A stretch of 63,201 nucleotides of DNA, filler included, from Stramenopiles sp. TOSAG23-2 (taxonomy: Eukaryota), in assembly GCA_900128395.1 (NCBI GenBank). It is 47 parts of 47 records of this genome, joined end to end, with 100 filler letters (N's around TTAATTAATTAA, not from the genome) between each part and the next. Parts side by side here need not be neighbours in the genome. Positions count along the whole stretch, not along the records: positions 2,713 to 3,968 come from LT653334.1; positions 4,069 to 5,323 come from LT653335.1; positions 5,424 to 6,677 come from LT653336.1; positions 6,778 to 8,030 come from LT653337.1; positions 8,131 to 9,382 come from LT653338.1; positions 9,483 to 10,734 come from LT653339.1; positions 10,835 to 12,086 come from LT653340.1; positions 12,187 to 13,437 come from LT653341.1; 39 more parts are not named here. One strand, written 5' to 3'. Made by a program: the position numbers and the translations under genes. This document shows, piece after piece, positions 2,713-31,149 of the stretch (its first letter is position 1; every line of letters begins with the position of its first letter). The notes under the pieces are model-generated. The model ran no database searches. It worked only from the letters and a program-made list of their open reading frames with translations, and was not told where the DNA came from.

Positions 2713-2932
2713 TGAGTTGATTCAATTGTTATTAACTCATATGTCTCTTAATAGCATTAATAAGAAGGCCGGGTTCGGGGGATCCACTCCCCTGGACAAT
2801 GCATATCGTAATAATCATAGTCCACTTCGCCAAGAAATCATTGCACTTTTACGTTCAAAAGGTGGAAAAGCAAATTATTTTGATGAAAATGGTAGACTTG
2901 TAGGATTAGGTAATGGTGATTTAAATCATTGA
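2713..2932 (+). CDS. Ankyrin-repeat family protein, C-terminus (family copy A)
   Basis: INKK..GSTPLDNAY..IIALLRSKGG ankyrin unit; near-identical to 25155..25584. Confidence 0.85.
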
Positions 2933-3004
2933 AAAGAGAAAGGGAAAGGAAGGGAAAGGAAATACCAGTAAAACATATTATCTGGCGATATATATAATAT
3001 TTTT

Positions 3005-3775
3005 ATACTCAAGCGCAAGAATAATATTCTATCCTAATAGTAAAGCGTAAAGCTCTAATGCACCTCTGCAAACCAATGCTTGAGAGTATTGAGCATATTA
3101 ACTATTACGCGTAACTTAACACGAGAAGTGTAAAATATTATATTATAACACTTTAGATTTTAACCATCATAATATATTTTTATATATGTAAAATTATTAT
3201 TAACTTAGATTTTCACCACATCAGTATATAAATTTCAAATATTATTAATGGAGTTTAAAAAAATCTATATAATCTAACAAAAATTAAATTGGCTTAAAGC
3301 ACAATGGGTCAATGAAACTTGTAGAAATCTAATATATGATTTGAGATGTTAATTTCCGGGAGTAAAAGAAATTTATATAATATAATGAAGAGAAAATAAT
3401 ACTTCGTATACGTATATAGACATATTGATATTATCAATTTTATAATTTACCGCACCATAATTTTTTATCGTATTTTTATACGATATATTAGGCGCACATA
3501 TATATATGTATATTACGTATATCACAGCAGGATCTTTCACTTCGACAACCTCACCGTTTTCGAATGAGCCCGGCGTCCAGCGCGTTCAACGAAAGCGCAT
3601 GGAAGTATTTGTGCTTGTAGAGTATTAGTTTGCAGAGGTGCATTAGAGCTTTACTATAGTATATACGAGCTCGTAGTAGGATAGCATATTTTATTCTTGC
3701 GATTGAGTATTGAGCATATTACTTAACACCGAGAAGAGTGTAAAAATATTATAACTTAGATTTTAACCATCATTA
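3005..3775. repeat. Two copies of a ~165-bp repeat, the first ~80 bp inverted in copy 2; third partial copy at ~3934-3968
   Basis: 3005-3080 matches the reverse complement of ~3621-3710 (AAAGCTCTAATGCACCTCTGCAAAC); 3084-3170 matches 3705-3773 directly (GAGTATTGAGCATATT...TTAGATTTTAACCATCAT). Confidence 0.8.
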
Positions 3776-3823
3776 TCTATAAAAATATTTTAAATATAAC
3801 AAGATGTCCTACCCTCTCCTTGG

Positions 3824-3855
3824 GAATACAGTGCTTGAGCCCAATATTAATATCT
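3824..3855 (+). repeat. Dispersed ~31-bp element GAATACAGTG..TGAGCC(C)AATATTAATATCT; second copy at 16242-16272; possible Tc1/mariner-like terminus
   Basis: Same sequence on two independent contigs; begins TA|CAGTG as Tc1-type TIRs do. Confidence 0.45.
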
Positions 3856-4070
3856 ATCTCACTAGACTCTTTTGGAAGTCAAGTTTTTAAAAATTATTTC
3901 GCTGTGTCAGAAATTTTTTAATTATCCATCTCATTGAGTATTTGAGCATATTATTTAACCACGGGAAGNNNNNNNNNNNNNNNNNNNNNNNNNNNNNNNN
4001 NNNNNNNNNNNNTTAATTAATTAANNNNNNNNNNNNNNNNNNNNNNNNNNNNNNNNNNNNNNNNNNNNGT

Positions 4071-4910
4071 GTAGTTATAACACCGGAGCCTGTTCCTGTA
4101 TTAGTTCCTGGTCAAAGTGGTGCAGCACCTGAACAAGAATCACCAAAAGCTGAAACCGGAGCATCTACCGGTAGTGCAGAGCCAGAAGCAAAACCATTAG
4201 TTTGGGATAAAATTAAAAGATTGTACGATGAAAATAAAGACAATAAAATTAGCTGGGCAGAACTTATTGCAGCAGCGCCAAAATTAAATACTCTACGTAT
4301 GAAAACAATATTTATTAAAATCGCTGGTCCAAAAGGTTTAGCAAGCTACAATGATTATTTAAAGTTCGTTACACATGCGAAAAAAGTACCAGATGCACCA
4401 AAAGAACCTGAAACCCCAAGTGAGCCAATGAGACCTACACCAAGTGAGCCAATGGAACCAATGAGACCTACACCAATGGAGCCAATGAAACCTCCAACTA
4501 TGTGCCCAATGCCACGTTGTATGCCACCACAGCCACATTGTATTATTGAACCAAGTATGGAAAAGAATGAAAACGGTTGTCCAAAATATCCATGTGGTAA
4601 AATTACATGTGAACCTAAAGCACCGAAGGTGGAACCAATGGAGCCTGTCACTGTAGCGCCAAAACCAATGGAGAAACATTGGGAAAAGGTTTTAAGATTA
4701 TATGACGAAAACAAAGATAATAAAGTAAGCTGGAGTGAGTTGATTAAGGCACAGCCTAAATTAAATACGATGGAAATGAAAGCAATTTTCAACAATATTT
4801 CAAAAAATCAAGGTGGTTTAGCTAGTTATAATGACTACATACAATTTGTCAAACGATCTGAAGAAGTAAAACCAATGGCAAGGCCAATGATGATGGATAG
4901 GAGATTGTAA
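4071..4910 (+). CDS. Protein with two EF-hand-pair modules separated by a Pro/Met-rich and Cys-rich linker, 5' partial
   Basis: LYDENKDNKISWAEL and LYDENKDNKVSWSEL; PMEPM repeats; CPMPRC...GCPKYPCGKITC. Confidence 0.75.
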   Translation, partial: VVITPEPVPVLVPGQSGAAPEQESPKAETGASTGSAEPEAKPLVWDKIKRLYDENKDNKISWAELIAAAPKLNTLRMKTIFIKIAGPKGLASYNDYLKFVTHAKKVPDAPKEPETPSEPMRPTPSEPMEPMRPTPMEPMKPPTMCPMPRCMPPQPHCIIEPSMEKNENGCPKYPCGKITCEPKAPKVEPMEPVTVAPKPMEKHWEKVLRLYDENKDNKVSWSELIKAQPKLNTMEMKAIFNNISKNQGGLASYNDYIQFVKRSEEVKPMARPMMMDRRL

Positions 4911-5323
4911 ACATAATGGGAAAATTTGTGAGAAGAGAGATATGATACGACCCGTTCGTATATTTTCTGATAATAAAAAAAATAAAATATCATATAATTA
5001 TATTTGAAAGAGATATGAAAAATATTTTTTTAATATGATATATGTTCGTTGTTCTCCGTATCAATCCTCTCTACTTGAAAAATGTTTATACGCCTTTGAA
5101 TTTTAATTCATAAGTAAACATAATGGGAAAATTTGTGAGAAGAGAGATATGATACGACCCGTTCGTATCATATATTTTCTGATAATAAAAAAAATAAAAT
5201 ATCATATATTATATTTGAAAGAGATATGAAAAATATTTTTTTAATATGATATAAGTTCGTTGTTCTCTGTATCAATCCTCTCTACTTGAAAAATGTTTAT
5301 ACGCCTTTGAATTTTAATTCATA
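4907..5323 (+). repeat. Tandem duplication (~207-bp unit) of the 3' flank
   Basis: 4907-5113 is repeated at 5114-5323 with a few SNPs and indels, ending at the contig end. Confidence 0.9.
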
Positions 5324-5864
5324 NNNNNNNNNNNNNNNNNNNNNNNNNNNNNNNNNNNNNNNNNNNNTTAATTAATTAANNNNNNNNNNNNNNNNNNNNN
5401 NNNNNNNNNNNNNNNNNNNNNNNTCCAAAAATGACCAATGTTAATTGGATGAAAATATCTAGAATATCCGATTTTTTACATTATCCTATATAAATATATA
5501 TCTACAGTATACTAAATTTGTACTAAATAGACCCCGCCTAAACAACAATTTATAACTAAGGACAATAGGAAAATACTATATTTTAACAACTTCTGTTGTT
5601 GAAGAAAAATGATGACATGATTTCACACTCTAACCTACCACAAAGATTCATTTAACTCCTCTCCTCTCTTCAGAAAAAATGAACAAATACTGTGTATGAT
5701 ACAACAACAACAACAACTATATGTATGGTATGAAGAAAATATTATAGCATATGTGGGAGGCATGATAAAGGAACCCTCCCATACATACATACACATACAA
5801 AATATAGAATTTTAAACCATACAGCATATACAGAGATATTTTTTTTTGTTCAATATAGTTCAAT

Positions 5865-6677
5865 ATGACATCATTAATATCAACATTAGAAAAAACAACA
5901 TTAAACAAAAATAATCATAATAATATAACAACATGGAGTATATCAAATATTTATACGACCTTCGATAAACAATTAAAACCCGGTGAAATTGCAAATTATA
6001 TAAAACCAATACATATGATTGGGCGTATAACATCGAAAAAAATATTAGGAAAGAATCTATGTTTTATACATCTATGTAATCATAATATTGATACTAGTAG
6101 TGATAATTCAACAATAAATAATAAATCAATTCAATTAGAATTACATCATATACATTTCAAAGATACGTTTGAACGAATGAATATATTCCGTAATATTCTT
6201 GGTAAAAATGATACGATTGAATGTATAGGTCTTCCAGCAAAAACACCTTCTATTGGTAAAATGTCTTTTATTATACATTCGCTGAATATAATACGAATAC
6301 AACAAAATATTCGTGGGATTGAACGAGTATTGCAAGGTTTAGAAACATTTGATAAACAATTACCATTAATATCTGAAGCATCTTTATGGTTACAATGTGA
6401 AAAAAAAGATCTTGCTATGCTTAGAAAGCTTCAAATTGAATCATCATCATCAGGAGATAGAAAATTATTTCGCAAAGCTTTACGTTTTGTAACAAATAAT
6501 TTAGGAATGGGACGTGGACCAAAACAACGTACTCTTGCTGATATTGGACCATTTATATTAGAAATGAAAAATAGAAAAAAAAAAAAATGTAAAAATAATG
6601 TCAACAATAATAATATATCAATGGTTCGTCAAAAACGTGTTCAAGAAATTGTTGCTCGTAGACAAGCTGGACTTGTA
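5865..6677 (+). CDS. OB-fold (anticodon-binding-like) protein continuing into the start of a TrmH/SpoU RNA methyltransferase domain, 3' partial
   Basis: IGRITSKKILGKNLCFIHL...DTIECIGLP resembles the LysRS/AspRS OB fold; terminal VRQKRVQEIVARRQAGLV matches the TrmH N-terminus (R..R..E..ARRQ..L). Confidence 0.6.
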
Positions 6678-6777
6678 NNNNNNNNNNNNNNNNNNNNNNN
6701 NNNNNNNNNNNNNNNNNNNNNTTAATTAATTAANNNNNNNNNNNNNNNNNNNNNNNNNNNNNNNNNNNNNNNNNNNN

Positions 6778-8029
6778 TCCAACGTATCTGAACCTTTTTC
6801 TTGTCGTACCCGTTGTTATCCACTAAATCATAATTTTTCTTGATGTAACGTAATTCTTCAAATGCAATTCGCAATACGTCAGATACTGATACACGTTTGT
6901 GATAAACGGCATGCCATATTTCCCATCTTGATCGCTCAACCGTTGCTAGATCATCCAACGCACTAACAGATGTAGGGACTCCACCATAATTTCGTGTTGC
7001 AGGTAATGCAACATTGCCATTTCCTGACAACCATTCTGCTAAATATTGTAATGCTTGGAAGAAATTAAAACGTATGTCCTTCATCAAAGCATTATTATCA
7101 CTATCATTACCATCGTTGCGATTGAAAAAATCAGCAGCAATTAATGATTGCGAAAATGTTTCTGATAATGGATCTAATGTCTCACCATCACCACCATTGA
7201 TAAATTTAAATAAGTCTTCTCGATCAACGGAATTAGTAACTAATGAACGAATTAATTGCTGAAGATCCTGACTGTTTTCACGATTATTCCATGCTTCAAC
7301 GATTGCTAATCCAATACGTCCAAATCTTGGATATGCAAACCAAAATCCGTTTAATCCACGTTTTAATTGCGTAATAACATCTTTGAAATAACCTATTAAA
7401 CAAACCTGAAACGATGGGCTTTTCATGTCATCATCATCTGGCACTAGGCCATACATGCCTCCAACACATATGCCTTTTCGCGGTCCAATAACATTTGCAA
7501 TCATTTCATGTGCCGCTTTCATATGTTTAATGACAATATTTGGATCGCTTTTTGGCGGTATCCTGTATGTTGATCCTTGATGAAACAATCTAGTAGCAGA
7601 TGCTAAGTAATCGTGCCAACCAAGGGAACCACCAGCAAAGTATGGATGAAGTGCATCTGCAATTTCATTAACACGAAAGATTGCTCGTGGATTTTCAAAT
7701 ACGACAATAATTCGCACTGTTCCTAATTTATATGATGGATATCGTTGTTGCAATAAACGTTCCGAGCAATCTATCACATTTTTTAAATATAAAGCTTCTT
7801 CTTCATTTTCCAATTTTGGGATATAAAATACCAACGCTTTAGGATTATTCCAGTTTTGATATAAATGAATAGCAAAACTGTATAAATGCATTGGTATTGG
7901 GTTTGAATAGTAAAACAAAAAAGTGCATGGTAATGCAAGTCCTGGCAATCTTACAATTGCTTGTGATGTATTTTTAGTTGAGAAATCATCCCCCACTTGC
8001 AATAATTGTTGGAAACCATCATGCGTCCA
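6778..8029 (-). CDS. Divergent malate synthase-like protein, partial at both ends
   Basis: IVRLPG, FYIPKLE..EEA, FENPRAIF..NEI..AL, GGSLGWHDYLAS, GGM and LDDLATVERSRWEIW parallel malate synthase A motifs. Confidence 0.8.
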
Positions 8030-8130
8030 GNNNNNNNNNNNNNNNNNNNNNNNNNNNNNNNNNNNNNNNNNNNNTTAATTAATTAANNNNNNNNNNNNNN
8101 NNNNNNNNNNNNNNNNNNNNNNNNNNNNNN

Positions 8131-8550
8131 CTGCAACAAGAAAGGGAACAAATGTTAGCACAACAAGCTATTAATATGTCCATGCAACAACAAGAAAAGG
8201 AAATAAATAATATGATGAACAATAATAACAATATGATAAATAGCAACAGCGTTAGTCTAAACGATTTAAATGGAATTGAAAATATGACAAACAATAGCAA
8301 TACCGGTAATGGTGGTGCCAATATGGAACGTATTGATTTAAAGGAAGTACGTGATCAACGTAGGGAAATTGAAAAATTAAGAAATTTATTACAAAATGAA
8401 AAAGAACAAAAAAATATGTTACAAAAAGCATTAGAAAGTGCAGAAAATACGATTATGGATTTGACTATCCAAATCAGTACAATGAATAGTAATCAATTTT
8501 TATTACCATTAAAAAGTGAAGAAAGTCAAAAACCACGAAAGACACCATAG
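8131..8550 (+). CDS. Coiled-coil hypothetical protein, C-terminus
   Basis: Open frame from the contig start; Asn-rich linker and heptad helix. Confidence 0.55.
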   Translation: MQQEREQMLAQQAINMSMQQQEKEINNMMNNNNNMINSNSVSLNDLNGIENMTNNSNTGNGGANMERIDLKEVRDQRREIEKLRNLLQNEKEQKNMLQKALESAENTIMDLTIQISTMNSNQFLLPLKSEESQKPRKTP

Positions 8551-9031
8551 CATATTTATATATATATATATATATTATAATAAATATTATAGTCGTAAAA
8601 GAAAGAGAGGTTTTTTGATGATTCGAATATGATAATCACGTTATAGATGAGCTGTATATTACATATAAATATATATATATATGCATATCGTGTATGCATC
8701 ATCTTATCATATGATAGCTCAGATAGAGTGTTGGATTGGAAATAACATTTTATAAAATATGATGAAATGTGTCTTGTGTATTTTAATCGCTTTCATGTAC
8801 GAATGTAGTTGTATATAAATGTATAATATAATATATAATATAATAAAATTATAAAACTAGAGAAAGGAGAGATACTCTCACACGCACGAAGAAAATACTC
8901 TTTCGATATATGTCACAGACACTCTTTCGTAGTTAGAACGACATGGATCTATCATAATATGACACTACATATCATCGCCTTTTCCTCCCTATCCTATCTT
9001 CTATAATAACCTTATGTATATATATATTTAT

Positions 9032-9201
9032 TTATTCGTCATCTTCTTCTGCCATTTTTCTTTGTGCTACCCGTGGAAGTCCAAATTTATTTGTTTCCAT
9101 CAACATACTTTGTAAAGCATCTCTTTTCTCATTTTCAAACTTTTCAAGTTGTAAACCTATAAAACCACCTGCACCAAACATTAAAACATGTTCCCAAGGA
9201 T
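9032..9201 (-). CDS. NDUFC2: Last exon of mitochondrial complex I subunit B14.5b/NDUFC2-like protein (absent from the ORF track)
   Basis: After a TAG acceptor at 9202-9204 it reads xPWEHVLMFGAGGFIGLQLEKFENEKRDALQSML...*; PWEHV..G.G followed by a charged helix matches plant-type B14.5b as I recall it. Confidence 0.7.
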
Positions 9202-9856
9202 CTATCGAATATTATAATACATAATGTTAGAGATATATCCAGTTTCAGTTAATAATAGTTTAGTACTGTATATATATATATATATACATGGCATAATGCA
9301 TTGAGTATACAACAATATAATTAAGTATGCTGTATAGTTGTATATATACGTTATATTCAGTTGATACTATATGTATATGTATNNNNNNNNNNNNNNNNNN
9401 NNNNNNNNNNNNNNNNNNNNNNNNNNTTAATTAATTAANNNNNNNNNNNNNNNNNNNNNNNNNNNNNNNNNNNNNNNNNNNNGATAATTCCTACTCTTCA
9501 AAAGAATAAAATAACTGAAATAATCTATCTCACACAAGTAGTGTTGATATTCTCATAATCGAAAATACCAATGAAGGTAAATAGATAGTAAAATATTATA
9601 TATATATAAAAATAAAAAAATATAAAAATATAAAAATACGAACACATTTTTACAAAATTTGAAATTTGTGTATTTTATTAATATATACGAGTTCGTACAT
9701 CTTATATATATTTTATACGAACACATATTATGTAAGAGAGAATTTTTATATATATATAATATATTTTTTAAAAAAAATACGAAAAGTTCGTTCGTTCATT
9801 AGAAGTTATGATATCATAACCTAAAAAGTATGATACGAGAAGTGTAGAAAAATATT

Positions 9857-10732
9857 TTACTTTATCATCTGATAAACTTGATTTGGTTCATTAATTTTCA
9901 TACTTTCTAGCCATTTTTTAGCTAGCAGTCTATCTTCCATAAGTGTATAGCATTTACTTAAATTAGTTCTGCTGCAATAATTTTGCGTTACTGCGATAGA
10001 ATCTTCTAGGTTAAAAACGGCATGATGCCAATTTGATGGGACAAATACAATTTCTCCAGGCATTTGTAGAAACTCTCGGTACCAAAAAGCTTCGTTATCT
10101 ATGTGACTGTTATTATTGGTATTTTTTTTTCTTAAATCAGACAATACATCAAAATGCATTTTTATCTTTCTTCTAATTTCTGGCAATTCTAAATAAATCC
10201 AAGAATATAAATCTTCCCAAAGATCTATATCCTCCTCATTTTGTTTTTCATTCTTATTATTATTATTATTAATTCCAATGTCTAAAGATTTTGTTGGTAA
10301 TAGCTCTTTTGGTGTTGCAGGGTGGAATAAAATCCACAATTTCTTTCCGCTGCACAATGCATTCCAAGCCTGCGTGCCCATTGGATCTTGGTGTACTGGG
10401 CTTCCAGAATTTTTAGGGCCGTAAATAAACCACTGGAAGGGTGGCCTTGAGATAGGATCAATATGCTTTAAATAATCATCTTGACTGAATAATGCAGGAC
10501 ATGCAAAATCGTTGATTAGATCCACTTCTTCTTGTTCCATTACTATAGCGTCAAAAATAAGCATTGGATTTCGATCATTGCAACCAATGACATACTTTTC
10601 CATATATTCTCTCAAGTTTAAGCTAACATCAATACCATTTTTATCAACACCACATTGAAAATGAACACAATTTATAAAGTTCCTAGTACATAATTTTTCT
10701 AGTGTCCATTCTTTTTCATTGTCCTTACCATT
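9857..10732 (-). CDS. JmjC-domain hydroxylase/demethylase, JMJD6-like, 5' partial
   Basis: RPPFQWFIYGPKNSGSPVHQDP, AWNALCSGKKLW, PGEIVFVPSNWHHAVFNLEDSIAVTQNY (HxD...H iron triad). Confidence 0.9.
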   Translation of the reverse strand, partial: NGKDNEKEWTLEKLCTRNFINCVHFQCGVDKNGIDVSLNLREYMEKYVIGCNDRNPMLIFDAIVMEQEEVDLINDFACPALFSQDDYLKHIDPISRPPFQWFIYGPKNSGSPVHQDPMGTQAWNALCSGKKLWILFHPATPKELLPTKSLDIGINNNNNKNEKQNEEDIDLWEDLYSWIYLELPEIRRKIKMHFDVLSDLRKKNTNNNSHIDNEAFWYREFLQMPGEIVFVPSNWHHAVFNLEDSIAVTQNYCSRTNLSKCYTLMEDRLLAKKWLESMKINEPNQVYQMIK

Positions 10733-11438
10733 ACNNNNNNNNNNNNNNNNNNNNNNNNNNNNNNNNNNNNNNNNNNNNTTAATTAATTAANNNNNNNNNN
10801 NNNNNNNNNNNNNNNNNNNNNNNNNNNNNNNNNNACTTAGACTAAATGTATATATATATATATATATATATACCACATTCTCTATTTTATTATAATTAAT
10901 TTTTATGTTGTTCATTCAATTTTCAAAAAAAAATTGATGTTTTTTAGCTTTTTTGGTTGGCCATTTGCACCATATTCCAGGCATTTGGATTTGAGGAGGA
11001 GGAGAGAGTTTTTGCTGGCTGGCTGGTTTGTTTTTGGATATTCCTGTATAATAATCTTAGGGAGCTAGGCTTAGCACAAAGAACATCAGCACATTTCTAA
11101 CATCAGCATCTCATTTGGCGGGTTTTGGAAGTAGAACAGCCTTTTTATTTTAATAAATTTTGATAGTATACTAAAACGTTGTTACCTCGACATGTAGGAC
11201 TTCCTTCATCTCATCCTTAAATATTAGCAAAAATCTATCAAATTAAGTATTTATCCGATACAAAAGCTCTTTTGATCGAGGACGCCTTATAGTAGGCATA
11301 ACTACAACACATTGCACGTATAAATACTCATCCTCGTCTGATAATACATACTATATGTATAATAATATTTGATGTCAAAAAATAGTATATACAACATAAA
11401 TAGAAATAAAAAGAAATTACTAACATCTTCCAAAAAAC

Positions 11439-12086
11439 ATGGGATGTGTATCAGCACGGCAACGCCATCGTGCGAAAGCTATACGAAATTTTCCAGAATT
11501 TGATAAAACCAAACAATTAGAGTTTGAAAGTATAATTGTGCCAAATGTAATAGACATCCAGACTAAATTAGTTGCATGTGAAGCTATTAGGCAAGATTTG
11601 ATGTTAGCAAAAGCTGCAGCCAATACTGAGGAAAAAGATGTAGTAAAAATAGACCAACTAACAAAAGAATTCCAAGATAGTTGGGATGAACTACGAAATT
11701 TGTATAAAAGCGCCATAGAAAAATTAGACTTTTGTATGCAAGAATATGATATTGAAACATTAGATCAAAATAAACTATCAAAATTATTATTAGATATCGG
11801 GGAAGAACCAATAAAAGAAAATCGAAATTTAGAAACCATAAAAGAATTGTTGAAAAAACAAGCTGAATTTTACGGTGAAGAAGGTACTGAAATAACAGAG
11901 GAACAGTATACTTTTTCAAAGGACGAATTAGAAGGGAACCACTTGCCACATGATGAATTAAGTCTTGAAAGTATAGAAGATGGTCTAAAAGATGGTATGT
12001 TAGCATTAGGTAGTGTAGTTGTGGCAGAGAAAAAAAATCGAGGAGCATGTGAAGGTGGTCGAATGAGAATGTTTAGAAAGAAAAAA
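11439..12086 (+). CDS. Hypothetical helical protein with N-terminal MGC dual-acylation motif, 3' partial
   Basis: Long ORF starting MGCVSA after an A-rich leader. Confidence 0.65.
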
Positions 12087-12829
12087 NNNNNNNNNNNNNN
12101 NNNNNNNNNNNNNNNNNNNNNNNNNNNNNNTTAATTAATTAANNNNNNNNNNNNNNNNNNNNNNNNNNNNNNNNNNNNNNNNNNNNATCTTGCCTCAATT
12201 GCCTTGCTTGCACGGCAGGTGTTGGCGCTGCATCCAATTTATATCCAGATATGTACATATTTTGTTTATCCCGATGTGCAAAATGAGAGGTTGACAATGA
12301 AAAAGGGGATGTGGTGATTGTATTTGTTTTCTTGTTTTGTATCAATTGTATATGTATGCATAGCCGCCAATACATGTCGTCTATATAAATTCTTTCTGTT
12401 TGTAACGTCTTTGTTTGAGCTCTATCCTGATGATGGCTATTTTAATATAGTGCACAATATACGAATAGCACAGCGGGGTTTTCCTGAGTAGTCGTCTAGC
12501 AGCAGGCTGGCTGGGCTGGCAGGGCTACTATACGAGAGGACGTACATTATTGAGTTGTAGATTTGACCTTAAAAAAGTCTCCTGAAGAAAAAAAAAAAAA
12601 AATAAAGGAGGTGTGCGTGTCGCACGTTGCCGCCAGGGTTGTTGCTCAAAATAGAACAAATGATTATTTGCTTATTTTATTACATTTTGTCCATTTTTTT
12701 AGCAACTCAATCACAAGCGTTATAGTATGTATGTATGAAATATATTCAGCGGAGTTTATGTTTCGAGCTTATTGACAAATATTGTCTACGTGGAAAATAC
12801 TTTACAGTTATTTTGAATGAAAGGTTATA

Positions 12830-14788: not shown

Positions 14789-14888
14789 NNNNNNNNNNNN
14801 NNNNNNNNNNNNNNNNNNNNNNNNNNNNNNNNTTAATTAATTAANNNNNNNNNNNNNNNNNNNNNNNNNNNNNNNNNNNNNNNNNNNN

Positions 14889-16138: not shown

Positions 16139-16739
16139 NNNNNNNNNNNNNNNNNNNNNNNNNNNNNNNNNNNNNNNNNNNNTTAATTAATTAANNNNNN
16201 NNNNNNNNNNNNNNNNNNNNNNNNNNNNNNNNNNNNNNAAAGAATACAGTGGCTGAGCCAATATTAATATCTCCTAATATATATACTCTTGTTTTTTATT
16301 TGTAAGAGTGCATATATATATAATATTCAAAAATAAAAATTCAATACGAACACAAAAATAGTTTCTATATATAATGTGTGACTTATGCTACGAACGTATT
16401 CGTAATTATTATGATATGTGTGATGAATGTGCATAAAGCACAAATAAACATATTTACATATTGATACAATATACATACGCTTGTATGTAGTATGTATAAT
16501 ATATAATTACATAATATTAAACATGTAACATGTATATGGCATGCCCTCGTTCAAATATGATACATTTTTCTCCTACCTTTGCCTGATTATATAAGACGTT
16601 GTCTTTGTTGCATGTTATATTGTTTTTGGTGAATTGTTTTATACCAGATAAGATAATTTTTTAACACATTCAATGCGAAAAATGTCAAAAGTAGATTTAT
16701 CTTTGGCAAATATATAAACGTATGTGTTCTACACAAACA

Positions 16740-17483
16740 TTATGCCATGCTACTGCTCCCACTTGGAGCCATGCTCGTTTGCTGACAAATATTGTCTTTG
16801 TGATAGATACATCTCCAATGAGAGCCATTGGAGATTAAAATATACAATTCTTTTTCAATTATTGCATTTTCAAGAACACCACGGCGAACAGTTCCCCCGC
16901 TATTTCCAATATTTACTCCTCCCACATAAGCTGTAATAGTGGCATTGCTGGCAGGAAATGGTGGCAAAGGTTGCCGCCGAGTATCAATTACCATCAATTC
17001 CGGGCATATGCTATTATTTTGTTTTTTTATGTGCCATTTTATAAAATCTCGAAAATATTGTGTAATTGCAGCAATATTATCCACCCAAGCTTTTGTTTGC
17101 ATCAATATTTCTACTTGGCGATAAAAATTTCCAAAATGCTGTTGATACTCCTCAAATTGTTCATTGAGTCGCCTTTCAATTGTTGTATCTTCATGTGGTA
17201 TTATACTTGAATTTCCATCTTCATCTCTAACTACCATCTCTCTATTGGCAGAATTAGCATTAAAAATAAAATCCCTGAAATTAGATTTTACAGAGATATA
17301 TTCTAAATACTGTTCAAATTCTGAACGAAACTCCGTTTCATATTTGAAATTTAAAAGTTTGCTAACAGCGCGCAAACTACATAATCCATCCCCTTGTACA
17401 TTATGAAGTTGCCATGGCAAATCGCTCCCGTTTGTATAAGCTTGACTTTCAATATCATTTACAGCACTAACATCATCTGCTTT
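16740..17483 (-). CDS. OTU-like cysteine protease (deubiquitinase)
   Basis: LHNVQGDGLCSLRAVS (catalytic Asp/Cys box) and ISNGSHWRCI (His box). Confidence 0.7.
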   Translation of the reverse strand, partial: KADDVSAVNDIESQAYTNGSDLPWQLHNVQGDGLCSLRAVSKLLNFKYETEFRSEFEQYLEYISVKSNFRDFIFNANSANREMVVRDEDGNSSIIPHEDTTIERRLNEQFEEYQQHFGNFYRQVEILMQTKAWVDNIAAITQYFRDFIKWHIKKQNNSICPELMVIDTRRQPLPPFPASNATITAYVGGVNIGNSGGTVRRGVLENAIIEKELYILISNGSHWRCIYHKDNICQQTSMAPSGSSSMA

Positions 17484-17588
17484 CTAATNNNNNNNNNNNN
17501 NNNNNNNNNNNNNNNNNNNNNNNNNNNNNNNNTTAATTAATTAANNNNNNNNNNNNNNNNNNNNNNNNNNNNNNNNNNNNNNNNNNNN

Positions 17589-17838
17589 TAACGATGTGGA
17601 TGAACAGGTTGACATTTGGGAATTTTGTATTTATATTTATCATAATATATTACGTGTTGAAATCGGTGGGGAAGTAGAACAAGTGGAGAAAATGGAAACA
17701 GAATGTGAGAAAATGAAACAACGTATTCAACAAATCGATCAAGAAATCCATGCCATTAAAAACAATCTTTCACGTGATGGTAATATCGATGTCGTCGATG
17801 TCGAGATAGATCATTTAGCGTTTAAAAAGATTGATTGA
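17589..17838 (+). CDS. Coiled-coil protein C-terminus
   Basis: Open frame with heptad helix VEKMETECEKMKQRIQQIDQEI. Confidence 0.45.
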
Positions 17839-18139
17839 TATTTTATCATATCATAGTATTTTTTTAATTTATCATCATTATAAATATGTTAAACAAATTA
17901 TTACTAGGACGTCGTACAAGGTAAAATACTGTGTATTAAAAAACAGAGGGACGAAAAAGTGTTTTGATGAAAAAGAATATAATATATTATATATACCTCT
18001 CTCGTACGTTTCGTATTCGTAATAAGTACGACTTCGTACTCGTATTTAATTAAAAAAAATTCTTTATATATCCCTGTGAACTTAATTGTCAAATGTTTAT
18101 CATCCATCTCCCCTACGAGGTATGTCTCTCTGTCTGTTT

Positions 18140-18837
18140 TCACTTTTTTTTATTTGACATGATTACTAATAAGCGAACGATGATATCACACCAATATAAC
18201 CACACAATACTAATACCAATTGTCATGACAGTTGGCATGACACCCCAAACTTTAAGTATTTCATTTGATTTTGGAAAGTAATATTTACCCTCATGGCTTT
18301 TTAATGGTATGAACCATCTGTATGAACGTTTCTCTTGGAACACTTCTTCTAAACCTTTAATTACACCACGTCGCTCTGCCTCCAATCCTTGTTTCTTTTC
18401 AATCATCGTAGTTGCATCTGCAATTTCTTCTAATTGCTCCCAACACATGCATGTAACAAATAAGCAAAATAAAAATGAGAAAATAATACTAACAATGTAT
18501 CCTACTAATACAAATGGACCTACAGTATTTTTGCATTGATACAAATGAAACATTTTAGCGTCATTTCGCTGTTTGCTTATATAACATGTATAAATACGTA
18601 TGCCGGTCATGATGATGGAATAACCAGAACCTAAACCAACATACAATAAAAAAAGCATGAAAAATTTATGATTTTCTTTTCCAACGCAATTGTTCATCCA
18701 TGGGCAATGGTGATCCATGTTTTCAACGCATGTACCACATGTACTACAATGATGTGTATGTTGTGGTTTGTAATTATCACATTTTTGGCACCATGGTATA
18801 CGAACTGGACGGCTTTGATATTGTCCTGATTTTTTCG
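18140..18837 (-). CDS. DHHC palmitoyl acyltransferase, 5' partial
   Basis: [40 protein letters not shown], two TM helices, TTMIE motif. Confidence 0.95.
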
Positions 18838-18938
18838 CNNNNNNNNNNNNNNNNNNNNNNNNNNNNNNNNNNNNNNNNNNNNTTAATTAATTAANNNNNN
18901 NNNNNNNNNNNNNNNNNNNNNNNNNNNNNNNNNNNNNN

Positions 18939-20188
18939 ATTGATGCATTTTGCTTCGTCTACGATATTCAAGACGAAGTGGTTTGCTCATTTTCATTCCA
19001 TTTGTTATAAAATCATTTAATTCACTTTTAGTAATTGATTTGCTTGAAGTAATACTTTCTAAAAATGTTGCAACATCATGTGTACTAATTGTTTCATTAT
19101 GTTCAGTTATGTCTGTTAACATTTGTTTTGTTTCATCTGCCTCAATAAAGCCACTTTCATCTGTATCGTATTTATTCCAAATATAGTCCAGGAATCTTTT
19201 AACACCATCAACCTTGTTTTGACGTAAACTTTCCAATTTTTCTTCGATACTACTGAAAAAAGTAGCTAGCATATTTTCAAATCGGTTGCTTTTGCCTTTT
19301 TGTCTATTCTTATTATTGTTATTATTATTATTATTACTTAAGCCATTTTCAATAGCTTGTATTAATTCTTGCATTGTAATAGTCGGTACTTCTCCACTTA
19401 ATCCACTTGTTGTATCAAATCGATTTATGAATTTTTTAACGTCTTCTAATTTGATTTCAATTTTATTATTAGTAACATCAATCATCATTTGTTTTGTATT
19501 ATCAACACCAATAAAACCATTGTTATTGTTATCATATATATACCATATTGAGTTTATATATTCATTTATATATGCATGTACGGAGGAACCAATTGATGAG
19601 CCATTTCTAGTAGAGCCGGATGAAGCAGAAGAAATGCTTTTTGTCCTGCTTCTATTTTCATTACTATTGTCTATTAATACTATATCACTCTTTGTATTTT
19701 TTTCTTCTGCTTTTTTTTCTATAAAATCGACTTCTTCTGTCATAGATATATCATGCCGTTTATCTTCGTCTACTTTTTGTTCCACTTGTATTTTTTGTTC
19801 TAAAATTATATTATTTTGCTGTATTTCTTTATTTTTGTTGGTACTATGGTTATTGTTGTTATTTGCGTCACTACTTTTATCACTAAAACCAAAAATATGA
19901 TTTAATATATTCAAACGTTTTGATTTCATTTTTTTTTGTATTTTATCTTCTTCGCTTTTTTTAGCCTGAATTGCTTCTAATATTTTTCTTTCCTTCTCTT
20001 TTTCTATGCATCTTATCTTATACTTTCTCCATGCAATTTGTATAATTTCAATAGATTGAAGCCGAATATTTTTATGATTGTAACGTTGAAAAATCCGTAT
20101 ACTCTGCTCTAGTAACTTCCGTTTTCTACAGTATTTTCTAATCACGCGTTGTATCTTCGATGCACACCTTGCTTTATATTTATGGACT
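18939..20188 (-). CDS. IQ-motif and EF-hand protein, partial
   Basis: IIQIAWRKY (IQ motif); YDNNNNGFIGVDNT and YDTDESGFIEADET EF loops in duplicated modules. Confidence 0.8.
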
Positions 20189-20288
20189 NNNNNNNNNNNN
20201 NNNNNNNNNNNNNNNNNNNNNNNNNNNNNNNNTTAATTAATTAANNNNNNNNNNNNNNNNNNNNNNNNNNNNNNNNNNNNNNNNNNNN

Positions 20289-21029
20289 TTTTTGATATAT
20301 TTTTGCAACTTCTAATTCAAATGTTTGCCATGTTTGTTCTGTTGTTGTGGTGCTACTATTGTTGGATCCATCATCATCTGAATCATCATCATCTGAATCA
20401 TCATCATCTGAATCATCATCATCTGAATCATCGGCATCGAAATAATCTGAATCACTTGAATCACTATCACTACTGTTGCTGGATGATCCAATGTTGTATT
20501 TGTTCAACAATCGATGTAGTTTACCTGTTTTAAATTCATTTTCATCTCCACCAATCGAAATTAAATAAGTAGCCACTTCACGTAGATCTTTATATCCTGC
20601 ATGTGTAAGTGCCGTTTTACCACTTTCATCTTTTTCCGTGAGATGTTTCGTATGGCATACTTCAACTAATATTTTTGCATCTCGTAATGATACTGTACCA
20701 TTTTGACATCCTTTTAATAATGGTAGCGACCCATTGTATTTTCGATTCAACATTAATTGGTGAAAAATGCTTCTTACGCTATAAAGTGGTTCATCTTCAA
20801 TCGTCTCGTCTTCTCCAATAAATGCAAAACTTTTTTTGGTTTTACCAAATAAATGAAGAAAATCTATTATGCCTAATTGACTACTACCTTTCGAACTTAC
20901 AGATAATGTTCCTATTACCCCATTACGTAAAGGCAACGGATTGCAAAAAAATGGTATGATATTATTTGTAATCGTAGTTGTGGGTAACTTTGTAAATAAA
21001 TCATCTTCACGGTAAGATTTTCCTGACAT
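20289..21029 (-). CDS. Protein with one ankyrin repeat and a DDDDS acidic repeat, 3' partial
   Basis: KDESGKTALTHAGYKDLREVATYLISIGG; 15-bp tandem repeat encoding SDDDD. Confidence 0.65.
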
Positions 21030-21462
21030 AGTCACTAAGATTTGTATTTTTTGATATAGGTTTTTTCTTGTTGTAATTTTTTGTAATTTTTTCTTTGGAT
21101 ATATAAATAATAGTTGCTTTATAATAAAATCCCCGTAATAAATGTTAAATTATTTTGCAAAATTATAATAAATAATTATTATTATAAAAAAAAATAATAG
21201 TAGAAAAAAATAATAAAAGCTGGGAATTGTTTTTCCTCGTTGTACACGATCACGTATACGATAATAAATATATTGTCTTTTAAATGTAAATGGTCTTTTG
21301 TAATTACTCAGGAGAGTTTCTTTCTATATTTTGGTTTCTTCCTCTCTCTATTACAACTCTTTCATCAATTCATTAACTGTTTTAAAAATAGCAGGTACAT
21401 ACTATTACAGGTTAATTTTTATTATTTTTTTAAATTTTTTATGTTGTTTTTTTATTTTTTTT

Positions 21463-21537
21463 TTATAATTCCCTCTTCCGTTTTCCACCTTTTGAACGTA
21501 TAAGATCAATGATCTTTTGTTGAATTGGACTTTTATT
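21463..21537 (-). CDS. Ankyrin family C-terminal tail (copy E; absent from the ORF track)
   Basis: NKSPIQQKIIDLIRSKGGKRKREL*, nearly identical in DNA to 24336-24390. Confidence 0.75.
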   Translation of the reverse strand, partial: NKSPIQQKIIDLIRSKGGKRKREL

Positions 21538-21888
21538 NNNNNNNNNNNNNNNNNNNNNNNNNNNNNNNNNNNNNNNNNNNNTTAATTAATTAANNNNNNN
21601 NNNNNNNNNNNNNNNNNNNNNNNNNNNNNNNNNNNNNAATTAAAAGCTGCGAAAAAAAACGAAAAGTGAATGTTGACTGAGAGAAAACGTCCGCATCTTT
21701 AACAAATTGATAAGAAATATTTAAAATAAACGGCTGTATTGTGCATTTCACTATACTGTGATTGTATATATATATATATAATATATATATAGTAGTCGTC
21801 TATTTATTAAATAATTTAAATTATAATACAGTACGATTCCAATTTCGTCGTAAAAGACGGAGGCGCTACTCAAAATTTAAATTGTTGT

Positions 21889-22141
21889 AGGTTAAGGTTG
21901 TATTGTTAGAATTTTACGAAATTTTTAACATTACGAAGCTCGTCTACCTACCAACTACGAGGTAAATACCAGGTAAATTAAATCGTTTCTATAATAGTAC
22001 ATGTATACGTATAGACGACTACTAATAAATCCACCCGCCGACTGAGGCTGTAATGCTGTACTCTAGCTAATGCTCTATTCTTGCTCTTCTGTGTGTGCAA
22101 CCCTCTAGCCTCTAGCTATCCTATCTCATAGCTACCAGGTA
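21889..22141. promoter_or_regulatory. Cluster of recurrent intergenic words (AGGTTAAGGT, TACCAGGTA x2) upstream of the 22428 ORF
   Basis: The same words recur in non-coding DNA of several independent contigs. Confidence 0.45.
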
Positions 22142-22427
22142 AATACCAGTTGTTAAAAAATAATCTAACACAGAAAACTATTAGTAAATATATATATATA
22201 TTTCTACTATCTTTTCTCGTTGCCCACATGGCATCACCCATACAAAGAGGAAATATCTATATTTGATAGTCATCTCTCATGCAATAAATATATTATTGAA
22301 CAGTTTTAATCGTTTATTATTTTAATTGCATTTGCGATATATAATATAATATATATATATATATTAGGTTGATTAATATATTATTGGATACTTTAAATCA
22401 TTTATTATTTTATAGTAAAGATCAAAT

Positions 22428-22886
22428 ATGGGTTGTTGTCCGTCAACACCACAAATTTTCCATGATTTGGAAGTGGCAATACAACAAGTGAAACAAAAGG
22501 AGTCATCCCTATCTATGGCAGCACAAGGTGAAGAAGAGTATGCCGTACCACCACGTTATATGTATTTGAAACAAGAAACACCATTCTTAGTCCCGCCTAT
22601 CCGCACCTTAAGTATACATGATAAATGTGTACAAGATTTAAAAGGTGTAATTGAACGTGCAAACATAGAATCAGAAAAGCTGACAGCGATGAAAACCAAT
22701 GAAGTCTTTCAGCAGTTATTCGGAGAAGCACAAAATTTATTTGAAAAGTATAAAACAAATCATCAACGTGATATGCAGACAGTAACAGCCGCGACAAACC
22801 GCGCTAAATTTGAACAACCGTCCAATATGATTATAATCAACTTACTAAATGTATTATGGAAAACGCAATGGTATGGTATAAAGGAC
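22428..22886 (+). CDS. Hypothetical protein with MGCC dual-acylation N-terminus, 3' partial
   Basis: MGCCPS start and long open frame. Confidence 0.65.
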
Positions 22887-24335
22887 NNNNNNNNNNNNNN
22901 NNNNNNNNNNNNNNNNNNNNNNNNNNNNNNTTAATTAATTAANNNNNNNNNNNNNNNNNNNNNNNNNNNNNNNNNNNNNNNNNNNNTGTCAAGCCAACTC
23001 CTTCTTCTTTTTGTGCAATATTAAACCTGGTGTAATAACTACTAAAGAAGAAGAAGAAGAAGAAGAGATTTCGTCAGAAAAAAAAAGAGAGTGTTGAAAT
23101 ATTAATAATAATACTCATCATTATTTAGTACTATTATTAGTATTATACTATTATTATTATTACTAATTAGACTATTATAATATGGTAGAGTAAACCGCTA
23201 TCCAGCTTACTATACAAGTTAAATATTTAGATGCAGAGCAGAGATAATAGAAAAAGAAAGAAAAGGCTGTTACGCCGCATGTACAGTACCACCTTGGTGG
23301 TAGCAGTCCAGATCACCATTTAACCTTATATAATTTTACAGATGATATTTTACCGTAATTTTAATTTCGGTAGTTTTTGGTGCGTGCACATTAGGATACT
23401 TCTGTATAGTCTGTACATATGTGCTTCTTATGCCATATTTTATTTATATATTGATTATTATCGATGTATATAATTTAAATTATATAGCCGCCGCCTCTTA
23501 TATATCTATCCAATATATTATCAATAAATAAAATATATTTGTATTACTAATAATAATATATTCATTGAAACTTAAAAATATAGATTTCGTATCAAGAGCA
23601 ATACACACACACAAATACATACACACACATGCGTATATATTAGATATTGTGTTAATTTTTATTTAAATTGTATATGTCTAATTTGACAGGATATATATAT
23701 GAATGACATTATTAATTGGATTGAATTAATTCTATTAATGCTAAAAATATATATGTCTAATTTCACTATAAGTCCAATAAGCAACGCAGCAACGCAACAG
23801 CAGTGCAACATGATATTTTAAAAATGTGTTCAAAAAGAAGAAGAAGAAATTACAATACTGTAATCTCAATCAGGGTTTGCCAGTTTGGTGCTTTGCTGGT
23901 GGTAATACCTGGTAGTATACTACTGTACAATACATTAGCTTTCCCCTTAAATGATATTAATAAAATATTATTAATCCTTATACCAAGTATAGTACCTGGT
24001 ACTATAAGAAGCCGTCACACAAATTATAAAATACTGTATACAGTACCCTTTATTTCTATTATTAAAATAAATAATTTTTATTTTTTTTAAAATCTCTCTC
24101 TCTTCTTTCTCATCATGCAATGCATACACCATTATCATCATCAATTTTAGTCATTTGTTCCTTACTTTTTTCTTTAATAATGTTTATACTTTGCATACTA
24201 TCATTCACATCATTAATATTATTCAGATTGCTCCANNNNNNNNNNNNNNNNNNNNNNNNNNNNNNNNNNNNNNNNNNNNTTAATTAATTAANNNNNNNNN
24301 NNNNNNNNNNNNNNNNNNNNNNNNNNNNNNNNNNN

Positions 24336-24462
24336 CGTTTTCCACCTTTTGAACGTATAAGATCAATGATCTTTTGTTTAATTGGACTATGATTATTATA
24401 TGCCCAGTCCAGGGGAGTGCCGTATCCCCACCCGTACCCGCCCTTCTTATTAATTGTATTAC
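24336..24462 (-). pseudogene. Ankyrin family fragment or terminal exon (copy D)
   Basis: NTINKKGGYGWGYGTPLDWAYNNHSPIKQKIIDLIRSKGGK; similarity to the family is lost upstream of ~24462. Confidence 0.6.
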
Positions 24463-25030
24463 GAGAGGACAAGAGGTGAGAGATCTCTCTGGACGCACGA
24501 GAGGAGAGGAAGTAACATGTGTAAATACCGTAGAAGGGACATATATATATATATATATATTCGAGAATATTTGAATGCACTCTTGCTTAACAAAGAACAA
24601 AACCTCTTTTTTTAAAAAAAATTCAAAACACACACCCCACATCTCCAACATCCATTCAACCACCAACACGCTTTGCATCACGATTTGCATGGAGAGACAT
24701 TTTTCATTTATACGTACACTTGGATTGGAGAGATACACACCGAGAGAGCCGTGCGTGTAAAAAAAAAATGTAAATGGCGGTTTAATTGTTTGTGTTTAGA
24801 TTTAGTTATCCTACCTTCGGTAACCTATTCAATAATAATTGTAATACCCCCTCTGCTGGCACGCGTTCAAATGTAAATGTGTTTATCTCGTCCATCTCTC
24901 CTTTCCACAAAGTGTTTCTATTTACTTTTCTTATGAGAGTTCTATATATACCTCGAACAAGTATGAACCCTTTTACAAGAGAAATATAGACTCTGATGTG
25001 TCTCTTTCCCACTTTCCTTCTCTCCTTGTT

Positions 25031-25142
25031 TTAATGATTTAAATCACCATTACCTCTTCCTACATTTCTACCATTTTCATCATAATAATTTGCTTTTCCA
25101 CCTTTTGAACGTAAAAGTGCAATGATCTCTTGGCGAATTGGA
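25031..25142 (-). repeat. Isolated duplicate of the ankyrin family C-terminal cassette (copy C)
   Basis: PIRQEIIALLRSKGGKANYYDENGRNVGRGNGDLNH*, 12 nt downstream of the copy B stop; differs from B at three codons. Confidence 0.85.
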
Positions 25143-25154
25143 GTAAAGCGAGTT

Positions 25155-25584
25155 TTAATCATTTAAATCACCATTACCTATTCCTACACGTCTACCATTT
25201 TCATCATAATAATTTGCTTTTCCACCTTTTGAACGTAAAAGTGCAATGATCTCTTGGCGAATTGGACTACGATTATTACGATATGCCCAGTCCAGGGGAG
25301 TGAATCCCCTGATGGACTTCTTGTTAATACTATCAAGAGACATATGAGTTAATAACAATTGAATCAACTCAGTAGTCGTTTTGTTATTATATGCTGCATA
25401 ATGTAATGCATTCGATCCACCACTATTTGCAATATTAGGATCAGCTTCACCTTGTTCAATTAAATATTGAACTACTTGGAAATGTTCGTACGCTGCAGCT
25501 GCCATTAAAGGTGTACATTCACCACCACTACTACTTCTACCGACTTGACTCACCATATCTTTCAATGTCATATCATCTCTGTAG
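25155..25584 (-). CDS. Ankyrin-repeat family protein (copy B), 5' partial
   Basis: Three ankyrin units: TPLMAAAAYEHFQVVQYLIEQGEADPN, NALHYAA, TPLDWAY. Confidence 0.9.
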
Positions 25585-31075: not shown

Positions 31076-31106
31076 GTAGCAGCAAATAATAATGTTGTAA
31101 AACATA

Positions 31107-31149
<43 letters not shown>

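Follow-up and report, generated by a model that had tools for sequence, protein, structure and literature searches.

What are the five ankyrin-coding pieces in a 63,201-nt stretch of the genome of Stramenopiles sp. TOSAG23-2, and why do they differ at so few codons? The stretch, referred to here as the window, consists of 47 contigs of 1240-1256 nt in descending size, joined by N44-TTAATTAATTAA-N44 spacers (for example, at 1257-1356 and 2613-2712); distances between features on different contigs are therefore meaningless. A previous sequence-only reading had proposed that the pieces come from a very large ankyrin family under diversifying selection, and family size, positional entropy and codon contrast all speak in favor of this proposal. 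We consider it fairly probable that the family is a germline repertoire of binders resembling designed ankyrin repeat proteins (DARPins), kept diverse by selection and recombination.

Ankyrin gene pieces in the window

The longest piece, c5 (25155-25584, minus strand), comprises the last 142 codons and the TAA stop (25155-25157) of a gene whose 5' part is lost at the end of contig 19. It encodes repeat 1 (25431-25541), repeat 2 (25317-25430), repeat 3 (25212-25316) and a hairpin tail (25158-25211), and was recognized by the Pfam families Ank_2 (E value of 2.3e-25, 89.4 bits versus a cut-off of 27.3) and Ank (63.9 bits). Its ten best public relatives show 73-84% identity to it. The c1 piece (2714-2932, plus strand), 83% identical to c5, retains the final 72 codons and a TGA stop, covering the end of repeat 2, repeat 3 and the hairpin tail, and has lost its 5' part at the start of contig 3. 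The c5 stop is immediately followed by c4 (25031-25162, minus strand), a tail-only fragment of 43 codons with the second helix of repeat 3 and the hairpin tail, in which similarity to the family begins at codon P107. A repeat-3-only fragment of 44 codons, c3 (24336-24469, minus strand), belongs to the IQQKIIDLIRSKGGKR subfamily and breaks off at GGK, where contig 19 starts; upstream of it are (TA)9 and a pyrimidine-rich stretch, with 560 nt devoid of family similarity. Finally, c2 (21463-21537, minus strand), at the end of contig 16, holds the last 24 codons and the TAA stop of a gene of the c3 subfamily with a short KRKREL tail, and 19 of its 19 residues are identical to the public protein P0044.

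When c5 was compared to the window by tblastn, c1 (E value of 7e-34), c4 (5e-17), c3 (2e-10) and c2 (1e-4) were retrieved, and the next match had an E value of 0.32. The positions of the five copies and their assignment to three contigs (3, 16 and 19) were thus correct in the sequence-only reading, but c3 and c4 are fragments and not genes.

A large family with a fixed architecture

Searches with c5 at an E value of <=1e-3 matched 287 of 304 candidates of similar size and 312 of 618 longer candidates, in agreement with the large copy number that had been anticipated. Identity to c5 ranged from 63 to 84% for the best 120 of the 287 and from 49 to 85% for the best 120 of the 312. In a region search with the N-terminal module, 168 of 179 candidates reached the E value threshold, and a full HMMER scan with an N-terminal profile matched 234 of 1.84 billion representatives (50% identity) at an E value of <=1e-3. 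The family also includes 23 EukProt gene models, numbered from g1162 to g14938, some of them adjacent (g13428, g13429, g13432). Several public relatives have a longest contig of equal length (e.g., 92,606 or 16,724 nt), which suggests that the family genes are clustered. As a side observation, MCIRDR starts and VSYTHLTLPTKA, CLLYTSPSPRD or LSLIHI ends of public proteins are presumably translated from untrimmed library adaptor; adaptor-like ends were seen in P0009, P0010, P0012, P0245, P0249, P0259, P0282, P0291, P0292 and P0294 and are contig-end artefacts.

Full-length members are single open reading frames (ORFs) of 303-316 aa (~310) with a constant order of parts: an N-terminal module of ~130 aa, followed by a capping repeat and three ankyrin repeats, and at the C-terminus a beta-hairpin that serves as a half repeat. 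The consensus of the N-terminal module is MASLTTN..KRQR..IGILVLPAGFESACGIM.NILQYLDIRSLCNVKRSSLIQQCRKAFG.DDFERVRD.AL..DY.GRRSINE..LSHPARRLYLLIERYKREFP, and that of the capping repeat is TPIVCACEHGRMDDVELF. Repeats 1, 2 and 3 read TPLMxAAxxEHFQVVKYLIEQGEADPNI, NALHxAAxxNRTNTELIELLLTHMSLDSINKK and TPLDxAYxxNxSPIRQEIIALLRSKGGKAN, respectively, followed by the tail KANxxDENGRxVGxGNGDLN[HD]. The number of repeats is constant in the family, except for occasional extra partial units (P0001, P0132). Membership in the ankyrin superfamily is clear, as Ank_2, Ank, Ank_3, Ank_4 and Ank_5 were each recognized in all 56 full-length relatives, and 271 PDB sequences were matched at an E value of <=1e-5. Both tail subtypes described from the window (KANY..GDLN and KRKREL) are present, and the public relatives add a third, acidic one; in the public set, ~208 tails are of the hairpin class, 16 of the acidic DEDDYEDY class and ~14 of the short KR..EL class, which is that of c2.

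Variation is confined to the predicted binding face

Positional entropy was computed twice, first with 121 sequences and then with 172 of 219 aligned sequences (the 47 dropped covered <135 of the 142 positions). Entropy was below 1 bit at most positions and reached 2.3-3.7 bits at ~22 sites, to which the variation is confined. In c5 numbering, these are positions 19, 21, 23, 31 and 32 in repeat 1; 53, 55, 57, 62, 65 and 66 in repeat 2; 90-92, 94, 99, 102, 103 and 105 in repeat 3; and 125, 132 and 135 in the tail. The exposed positions of the second helices and of the linkers were not variable in the entropy profile.

An AlphaFold2 model of the relative P0136 showed paired helices and hairpin bridges with a predicted local distance difference test score (pLDDT) of 86-98 over residues 171-300, and of 35-70 in the N-terminus. 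Its best Foldseek matches were DARPins, with a template modeling score of up to 0.80 on the target, and DARPin and ankyrin domains were matched with E values of 4e-6 to 6e-5. When entropy was laid over the DSSP string of the model, the variable sites fell on the hairpins (residues 188, 190 and 192; 222-226; 259-262; 293-303) and on the central and C-terminal portions of the first helix (200-201; 231 and 234-235; 267 and 270-271), i.e., at the tip of each hairpin and along each repeat's first helix, where the sequence-only reading had placed them. On this model, the ~22 residues would form one continuous variable surface, with the tail hairpin extending the same face. The hairpins and inner helices of the concave face are described as the ankyrin binding interface in a study of fungal receptors (PMC4986451), and the variable surface is thus predicted to be a DARPin-like target-binding face.

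Three further results, on saturation, composition and codons, speak against a mere tolerance of change. Over 14,706 pairs, identity at variable sites was 0.13-0.21 in all framework-identity bins from 0.70 to 0.98, where independent draws would give 0.165; it was at the chance level even for pairs whose frameworks are 93-98% identical. With regard to composition, the 3,531 residues at variable sites were enriched in Trp (6.5x), Gly (3.2x), Asp (3.0x), Tyr (2.3x) and Arg (2.1x) and depleted of Ile (0.09x), Pro (0.18x), Leu (0.23x) and Lys (0.38x), compared to expectation from the base composition of the window. Such a binder-like composition is the opposite of what an AT-rich mutational bias would produce, indicating that the variable sites are selected rather than drifting. 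Variation in the length of the hairpin loops, also noticed beforehand, was greatest in repeat 3, where the loops have 4-12 residues and 52 of 202 were off the modal size, compared to 27 of 242 in repeat 1 and 20 of 243 in repeat 2.

Codon differences between the copies

We then compared the copies of the window codon by codon. The repeat-3 hairpin loop lies at 25287-25316 in c5 (minus strand; SIRGF-TPLD-W), at 2768-2800 in c1 (plus strand) and at 24404-24442 in c3 (minus strand). The loop readings KK-AGFGGS-TPLDN, KK-SIRGF-TPLDW and KK-GGYGWGYG-TPLDW and the tail readings GR-L-VG-L, GR-R-VG-I and GR-N-VG-R, which had been given from the window, are exact in the codon listing. The framework DNA is indeed nearly identical, with 7 differences in 60 codons between c5 and c1, 2 in 34 codons between c5 and c4, and 50 of 51 nt shared by c2 and c3.

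In the c5-c1 pair, the 11 hypervariable codons showed 10 nonsynonymous differences in 25.8 sites (proportion of nonsynonymous differences [pN] of 0.39; nonsynonymous distance [dN] of 0.544) and 0 synonymous differences in 7.2 sites. The 60 framework codons showed 3 synonymous and 4 nonsynonymous differences, corresponding to a synonymous distance (dS) of 0.082 and a dN of 0.029. Hypervariable dN was thus 6.6 times framework dS, and the excess of hypervariable nonsynonymous differences over those at all synonymous sites was significant (Fisher P value of 0.0013). Over 37 codons, c5 and c4 had 0 synonymous differences in 24.7 sites, and both hypervariable tail codons differed. In the 17 codons (51 nt) that c2 and c3 share from AGTCCAATT, a single nucleotide differs, which is nonsynonymous, with 0 synonymous differences; the codon preceding this stretch, hypervariable position 105, is AAA in c2 and CAT in c3. 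The tail codons had been thought to be exchanged mostly by multinucleotide swaps, and this was only half the case: three of six comparisons require 2 nt (CGT/AAT, CTT/AAT, TTA/AGA), but the other three require one.

Mosaics and homogenization of the coding sequence

Analysis of the family also revealed module mosaics, as asked for by a proposed check for gene conversion. In total, 28 protein pairs share all five variable residues of repeat 1, and 21 of these show <=0.34 identity at repeat 2, whereas chance would give ~2 such pairs (arithmetic from the 0.165 mean). As an example, no difference separates c5 from the EukProt protein P0008 up to the end of repeat 1, variable residues included; beyond it, the two are unrelated. 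In P0001 and P0132, an extra partial repeat and tail follow in frame; c5 and c4 have the same layout with a stop in between.

Homogenization was confined to coding sequence. The coding parts of c1 and c4 are identical at 101 of 108 positions, and their 3' flanks match at 16 of 32, 29 of 44 and 20 of 47 positions over successive 50-column blocks. Such diverged flanks beside near-identical coding sequence indicate that the duplications are not very recent and that the coding framework has been kept homogeneous, synonymous sites included. Gene conversion limited to the coding sequence would be the simplest reading of this pattern.

Other sources of the diversity were discarded. Exon shuffling was ruled out, since full-length members are single ORFs, and sequencing or amplification errors were ruled out, since errors would not pick structurally defined codons. 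A diversity-generating retroelement, which alters its target only at template adenines, was rejected as well: codons of c1, c4 and c5 change at T, C and G in both directions (TCC/GCC, ATC/TTC, TTC/TCC, CGT/CTT, AGA/ATA), and no reverse transcriptase was present among the 36 ORFs scanned.

A probable repertoire of DARPin-like binders

The explanation that we favor, and to which we attach fair though far from complete confidence, is the germline repertoire of DARPin-like binders introduced above. Each paralogue would display a different binding surface on the same scaffold. Diversity would arise by substitutions at binding-surface codons, retained by selection, by insertions and deletions in the hairpin loops, mostly that of repeat 3, and by exchange of whole repeat modules between paralogues. 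The same recombination or gene conversion would account for a framework that is almost the same down to its synonymous sites, and would leave behind fragments such as c3 and c4. Given the arms-race signature, fast-evolving foreign proteins, from a virus, an intracellular bacterium or prey, would be the best guess for the targets.

The constant N-terminal module, in turn, would translate binding into one shared output; it may be a divergent F-box by which an SCF (Skp1-cullin-F-box) ubiquitin ligase is recruited. The window itself contains no Skp1 gene. As had been suggested, longer sequences gave access to this N-terminal region, and a family-specific module of ~130 aa was found there. F-box-like was the commonest non-ankyrin match, always at the LPAG..ILQYLDI..L..V segment, and F-box was matched in 7 of 56 members. 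Among 25 divergent relatives, 2 gave an F-box-like match at an E value of <0.1, under the cut-off. The structural model places helices at residues 42-53, 58-62 and 68-77 of the N-terminus, with a low pLDDT of 58-70, and a weak Atlas neighbor (0.81) of residues 1-128 is a cluster in which 21% of members have an F-box. Searches with the N-terminus (Pfam, PDB profile, Atlas, region search and HMMER) gave no significant tie to a named domain; further matches were family members only, with ankyrin repeats always behind the module. The hypothesis that the module is an SCF ubiquitin ligase adaptor is thus a tentative one, which we would sooner doubt than believe.

Several points weigh against the explanation as a whole. 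F-box-like matches occurred in 20 of 56 members with a best E value of 0.0065 and 12-15 bits versus a 24.3-bit cut-off, none of the 56 members carried an F-box above the Pfam gathering score, and a profile of nine N-termini compared to the PDB found no F-box protein, the best match being ClpS (E value of 0.53). The dN/dS contrast comes from three short pairs within one window (72, 37 and 17 codons). Moreover, conversion that lowers framework dS would inflate this contrast, so that point-wise positive selection and selection against homogenization are indistinguishable. The public set pools proteins of many assemblies, so that alleles or strain differences, instead of differences between paralogues, may account for a part of its diversity; chimeric assembly of near-identical copies could explain a part of the mosaics. 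Lastly, four of the five pieces (c1, c2, c3 and c5) touch a contig end, as collapsed repeats do; breakage by the assembler in near-identical repeats would be expected to leave them there.

Alternative explanations

As a first alternative, sequences of a giant virus or of an intracellular bacterium could have been binned together with those of the eukaryote, in which case the family would belong to that virus or bacterium and serve to manipulate its host, as in Bodo saltans virus, poxviruses or Legionella. Legionella AnkB combines an N-terminal F-box with ankyrin repeats. The relatives occur in ocean metagenome records of small size fractions, and one weak Atlas neighbor (0.85) is a Nucleocytoviricota cluster, although the Atlas taxa as a whole were weak and pointed to Chlorophyta or Nucleocytoviricota (0.81-0.85). 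Marine Mimiviridae have AT-rich DNA, massive ankyrin duplication and disrupted copies, with 148 copies and 25% GC in the genome account of PMC5871332. The window tells otherwise. Its other contigs carry cellular genes, including HSP90, a HECT ligase, a DHHC palmitoyltransferase, STT3, JmjC, SMC, C2, EF-hand and MYND plus TPR (tetratricopeptide repeat) proteins, and a Pfam scan of 36 long ORFs found 0 viral hallmark genes. Such ordinary eukaryotic genes without a viral hallmark among the scanned ORFs identify the source as a fragmentary assembly of an AT-rich eukaryote. Furthermore, 30 of the 47 contigs, contigs 3 and 19 among them, carry (TA)n tracts (e.g., at 24542-24559, 8557-8574 and 10849-10872), and this noncoding style is common to contigs with cellular genes and to the ankyrin contigs. 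The 23 EukProt gene models, spread over a wide range of gene numbers, also speak against a viral origin. As to prokaryotes, the family alignment retrieved no member from 185,579 bacterial and archaeal genomes, and the family is thus absent from prokaryotic reference genomes. We therefore hold a viral or bacterial origin to be unlikely. The source of the family is apparently marine, as judged from relatives in ocean metagenomes and EukProt sets.

Two side observations belong here. Several public family members show a read-through "IYIYI" immediately upstream of the start codon. The only match of the prokaryote scan was an unrelated-looking ankyrin gene of a Coxiellaceae single-cell assembly (L001:3001-3228; 32% identity over 71 residues).

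Recognition within the species (mating, kin recognition or allorecognition, as with fungal het genes of the nucleotide-binding domain and leucine-rich repeat receptor [NLR] type), or a role as housekeeping substrate adaptors, would likewise account for a variable binding face. A conserved scaffold, hypervariable binding sites and recombination are also the marks of the fungal incompatibility NLR repeats (PMC4986451). By eye, full-length sequences contain no signal peptide or membrane segment; the proteins were therefore taken as intracellular, which speaks against cell surface receptors, and saturated binding surfaces are not expected of housekeeping adaptors. Neither argument is decisive, and we regard this alternative as having a small chance of being right.

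A bolder version of the repertoire would be antibody-like, with hundreds of "natural DARPins" on a common scaffold, renewed by conversion from partial, silent cassettes (such as c3 and c4) and at a GC-rich, indel-prone hairpin hot spot, and with a constant N-terminal module that leads to destruction of the bound foreign protein inside the cell; taken as a whole, we find it improbable. The programmed mechanism that it requires, in which silent fragments act as donor cassettes for conversion into expressed genes and the repeat-3 hairpin is a hot spot, has several observations on its side. The repeat-3 hairpin has a GC content of 0.60-0.72 in c5, c1 and c3, and 27 of its 34 codons end in G or C, compared to 23 of 132 in the remainder of c5 (Fisher P value of 2e-11) and a genome GC content at third codon positions (GC3) near 0.17-0.19. 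The TPLD motif of repeat 3 is spelled ACTCCCCTGGAC in all three copies, and the TPLM of repeat 1 is spelled ACACCTTTAATG. The higher GC content that had been attributed to the loops thus holds for the repeat-3 hairpin but not for the loops of repeats 1 and 2, and this hairpin may be a hot spot of recombination or biased conversion. The same loop has the most length variation, the fragments adjoin the end of a full gene on contig 19, P0001 and P0132 carry their extra partial repeat and tail in frame, and homogenization is limited to coding sequence. However, unequal crossing-over would be expected to leave such fragments as well, no sign of somatic change and no candidate enzyme were seen, the loop is available in only three DNA copies, and a somatic step is unnecessary to account for the hundreds of different germline-like sequences found in bulk data. 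Programmed diversification is accordingly very unlikely in our view.

Ordinary ankyrin paralogues with a tolerant surface and a conserved framework, free of diversifying selection and of any recognition repertoire, would fit the general rule that consensus positions are conserved and exposed ones vary in all ankyrin families, as well as the small codon sample of the window, but we give this little credence, since neutral drift cannot yield a dN of 0.54 where dS is 0.08 or chance identity at 22 sites between frameworks that are 93-98% identical, would not raise Trp 6.5-fold and lower Ile 10-fold compared to what mutation predicts, and would not leave the exposed second-helix and linker positions invariable.

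Comparison with known systems

Returning to the repertoire of binders that we favor, its design is that of a DARPin library in several respects: the fold is the same, the framework is fixed, diversity is found in the hairpin and first helix, and Tyr, Trp, Arg and Asp are used. The positions randomized in DARPins (2, 3, 5, 13, 14 and 33) overlap with the variable set of the family, which is roughly 1, 3, 5, 10, 13 and 14, with position 16 and changes of loop length added in repeat 3. Unlike DARPins, the family is natural and genomic, and it has a variable hairpin at the C-terminus instead of a C-cap.

Substrate receptors of cullin-RING ligases include expanded, positively selected families, such as F-box proteins in nematodes and plants, ankyrin-SOCS box proteins in animals, ankyrin/PRANC proteins in poxviruses and AnkB in Legionella. 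The family shares with them a constant module joined to variable binding repeats, lineage-specific expansion and a suspected role in host-pathogen conflict. Unlike PRANC or the SOCS box, however, its module is N-terminal, its F-box is only putative, and its hypervariability is far more focused. PRANC was not matched among the Pfam families listed, and the C-terminus is an 18-residue hairpin or an acidic or short KR..EL tail.

The hypervariable leucine-rich repeat (LRR) and TPR families of brown algae are described as diversifying by shuffling of repeat exons and as attached to ROCO or NB-ARC domains. They resemble the present family in being lineage specific, in the variability of their binding face, in their proposed function as pathogen receptors and in their occurrence in a eukaryote that is neither animal nor plant; their N-terminal modules differ, and the present genes are single ORFs. 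The analogy drawn earlier with these families consequently holds for the evolutionary pattern but not for the mechanism, since single ORFs exclude exon shuffling.

Among described systems, the closest is found in fungal NLRs, with their hypervariable ANK, TPR and WD repeats (PMC4986451), and the present family is not a member of it. Similarly to what is described there for the Podospora HNWD and NLR genes (PMC4986451), it combines a conserved scaffold with a few diversified positions, under positive selection in the fungal genes, on the hairpin and inner helices of the concave face, recombination, concerted evolution, length polymorphism and a proposed role in non-self recognition. According to that study (PMC4986451), conservation in fungal NLRs is between repeats within a gene, the repeats number 7 to >16, and a NACHT or NB-ARC domain stands in front. 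Here, in contrast, the three repeats are mutually dissimilar and fixed in number, and conservation is between paralogues. NACHT and NB-ARC were not among the 25 most frequent of 30 Pfam families found in 56 full-length members, and a length of ~310 aa leaves no room for them.

A superficial likeness exists to the ankyrin "genomic accordion" of Bodo saltans virus as outlined in PMC5871332, with its AT-rich marine genome, tandem duplications, disrupted copies and arms-race interpretation. In that outline (PMC5871332), the viral proteins are "quite variable" and have 4-17 repeats, unlike the rigid three-repeat scaffold, point-focused variation and cellular gene bin found here. We found no account of such a family in a marine protist in the open-access literature, which is weak evidence that none exists in print. 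Neither ankyrin nor F-box is mentioned in a comparative paper on marine stramenopiles (MAST) (PMC8163842), and a paper on a choanoflagellate microbiome (PMC9418006) proved to have no bearing on the family. The GC content of the window, 32%, is near the 33.9% published for MAST-4A single-cell genomes (PMC5269757), which is a lead at most.

The family offers a natural experiment on which ankyrin positions evolution randomizes, and it raises a testable question: does the germline of marine protists contain libraries of intracellular binders, and are these wired to ubiquitin-dependent destruction? Repertoires of variable binders are known in vertebrates (antibodies and the variable lymphocyte receptors of lampreys) and in plants and fungi (NLRs), with candidates in brown algae. 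To our knowledge, almost nothing is known of how the small heterotrophs and algae that dominate the ocean recognize viruses, parasites or prey. With ~310 aa, no introns and 22 variable positions, the family would be a compact and easily expressed candidate, and natural binders of this kind could serve directly as reagents.

Other features of the window

On contig 16, a gene at 20289-21029 (minus strand) lies downstream of c2 on the same strand and encodes a single ankyrin unit with a long acidic run of Ser and Asp as its tail (SDSDSSDSD..DDDDSDDDD). It matched Ank_2 with an E value of 3.5e-4, under the Pfam cut-off, and showed 26% identity to P0171 (E value of 2e-5) and 44% to P0440; its product is a distant relative of the wider family.

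A scan of the window with Rfam revealed no rRNA and no other family. Contig 24 contains a long poly-asparagine-coding low-complexity stretch (31076-32322), and contig 47 a Cys-rich repetitive ORF without a Pfam match (61964-63199). An ORF on contig 37 (48553-49749) has repeats of the Chlamydia PMP type (E value of 8e-6). A TPR_12 protein is encoded at 27791-28279 (minus strand; Pfam E value of 6.8e-58), and a protein with zf-MYND and TPR_12 matches in Pfam at 35594-36358 (plus strand); these two genes may represent further expanded repeat families of the same genome.

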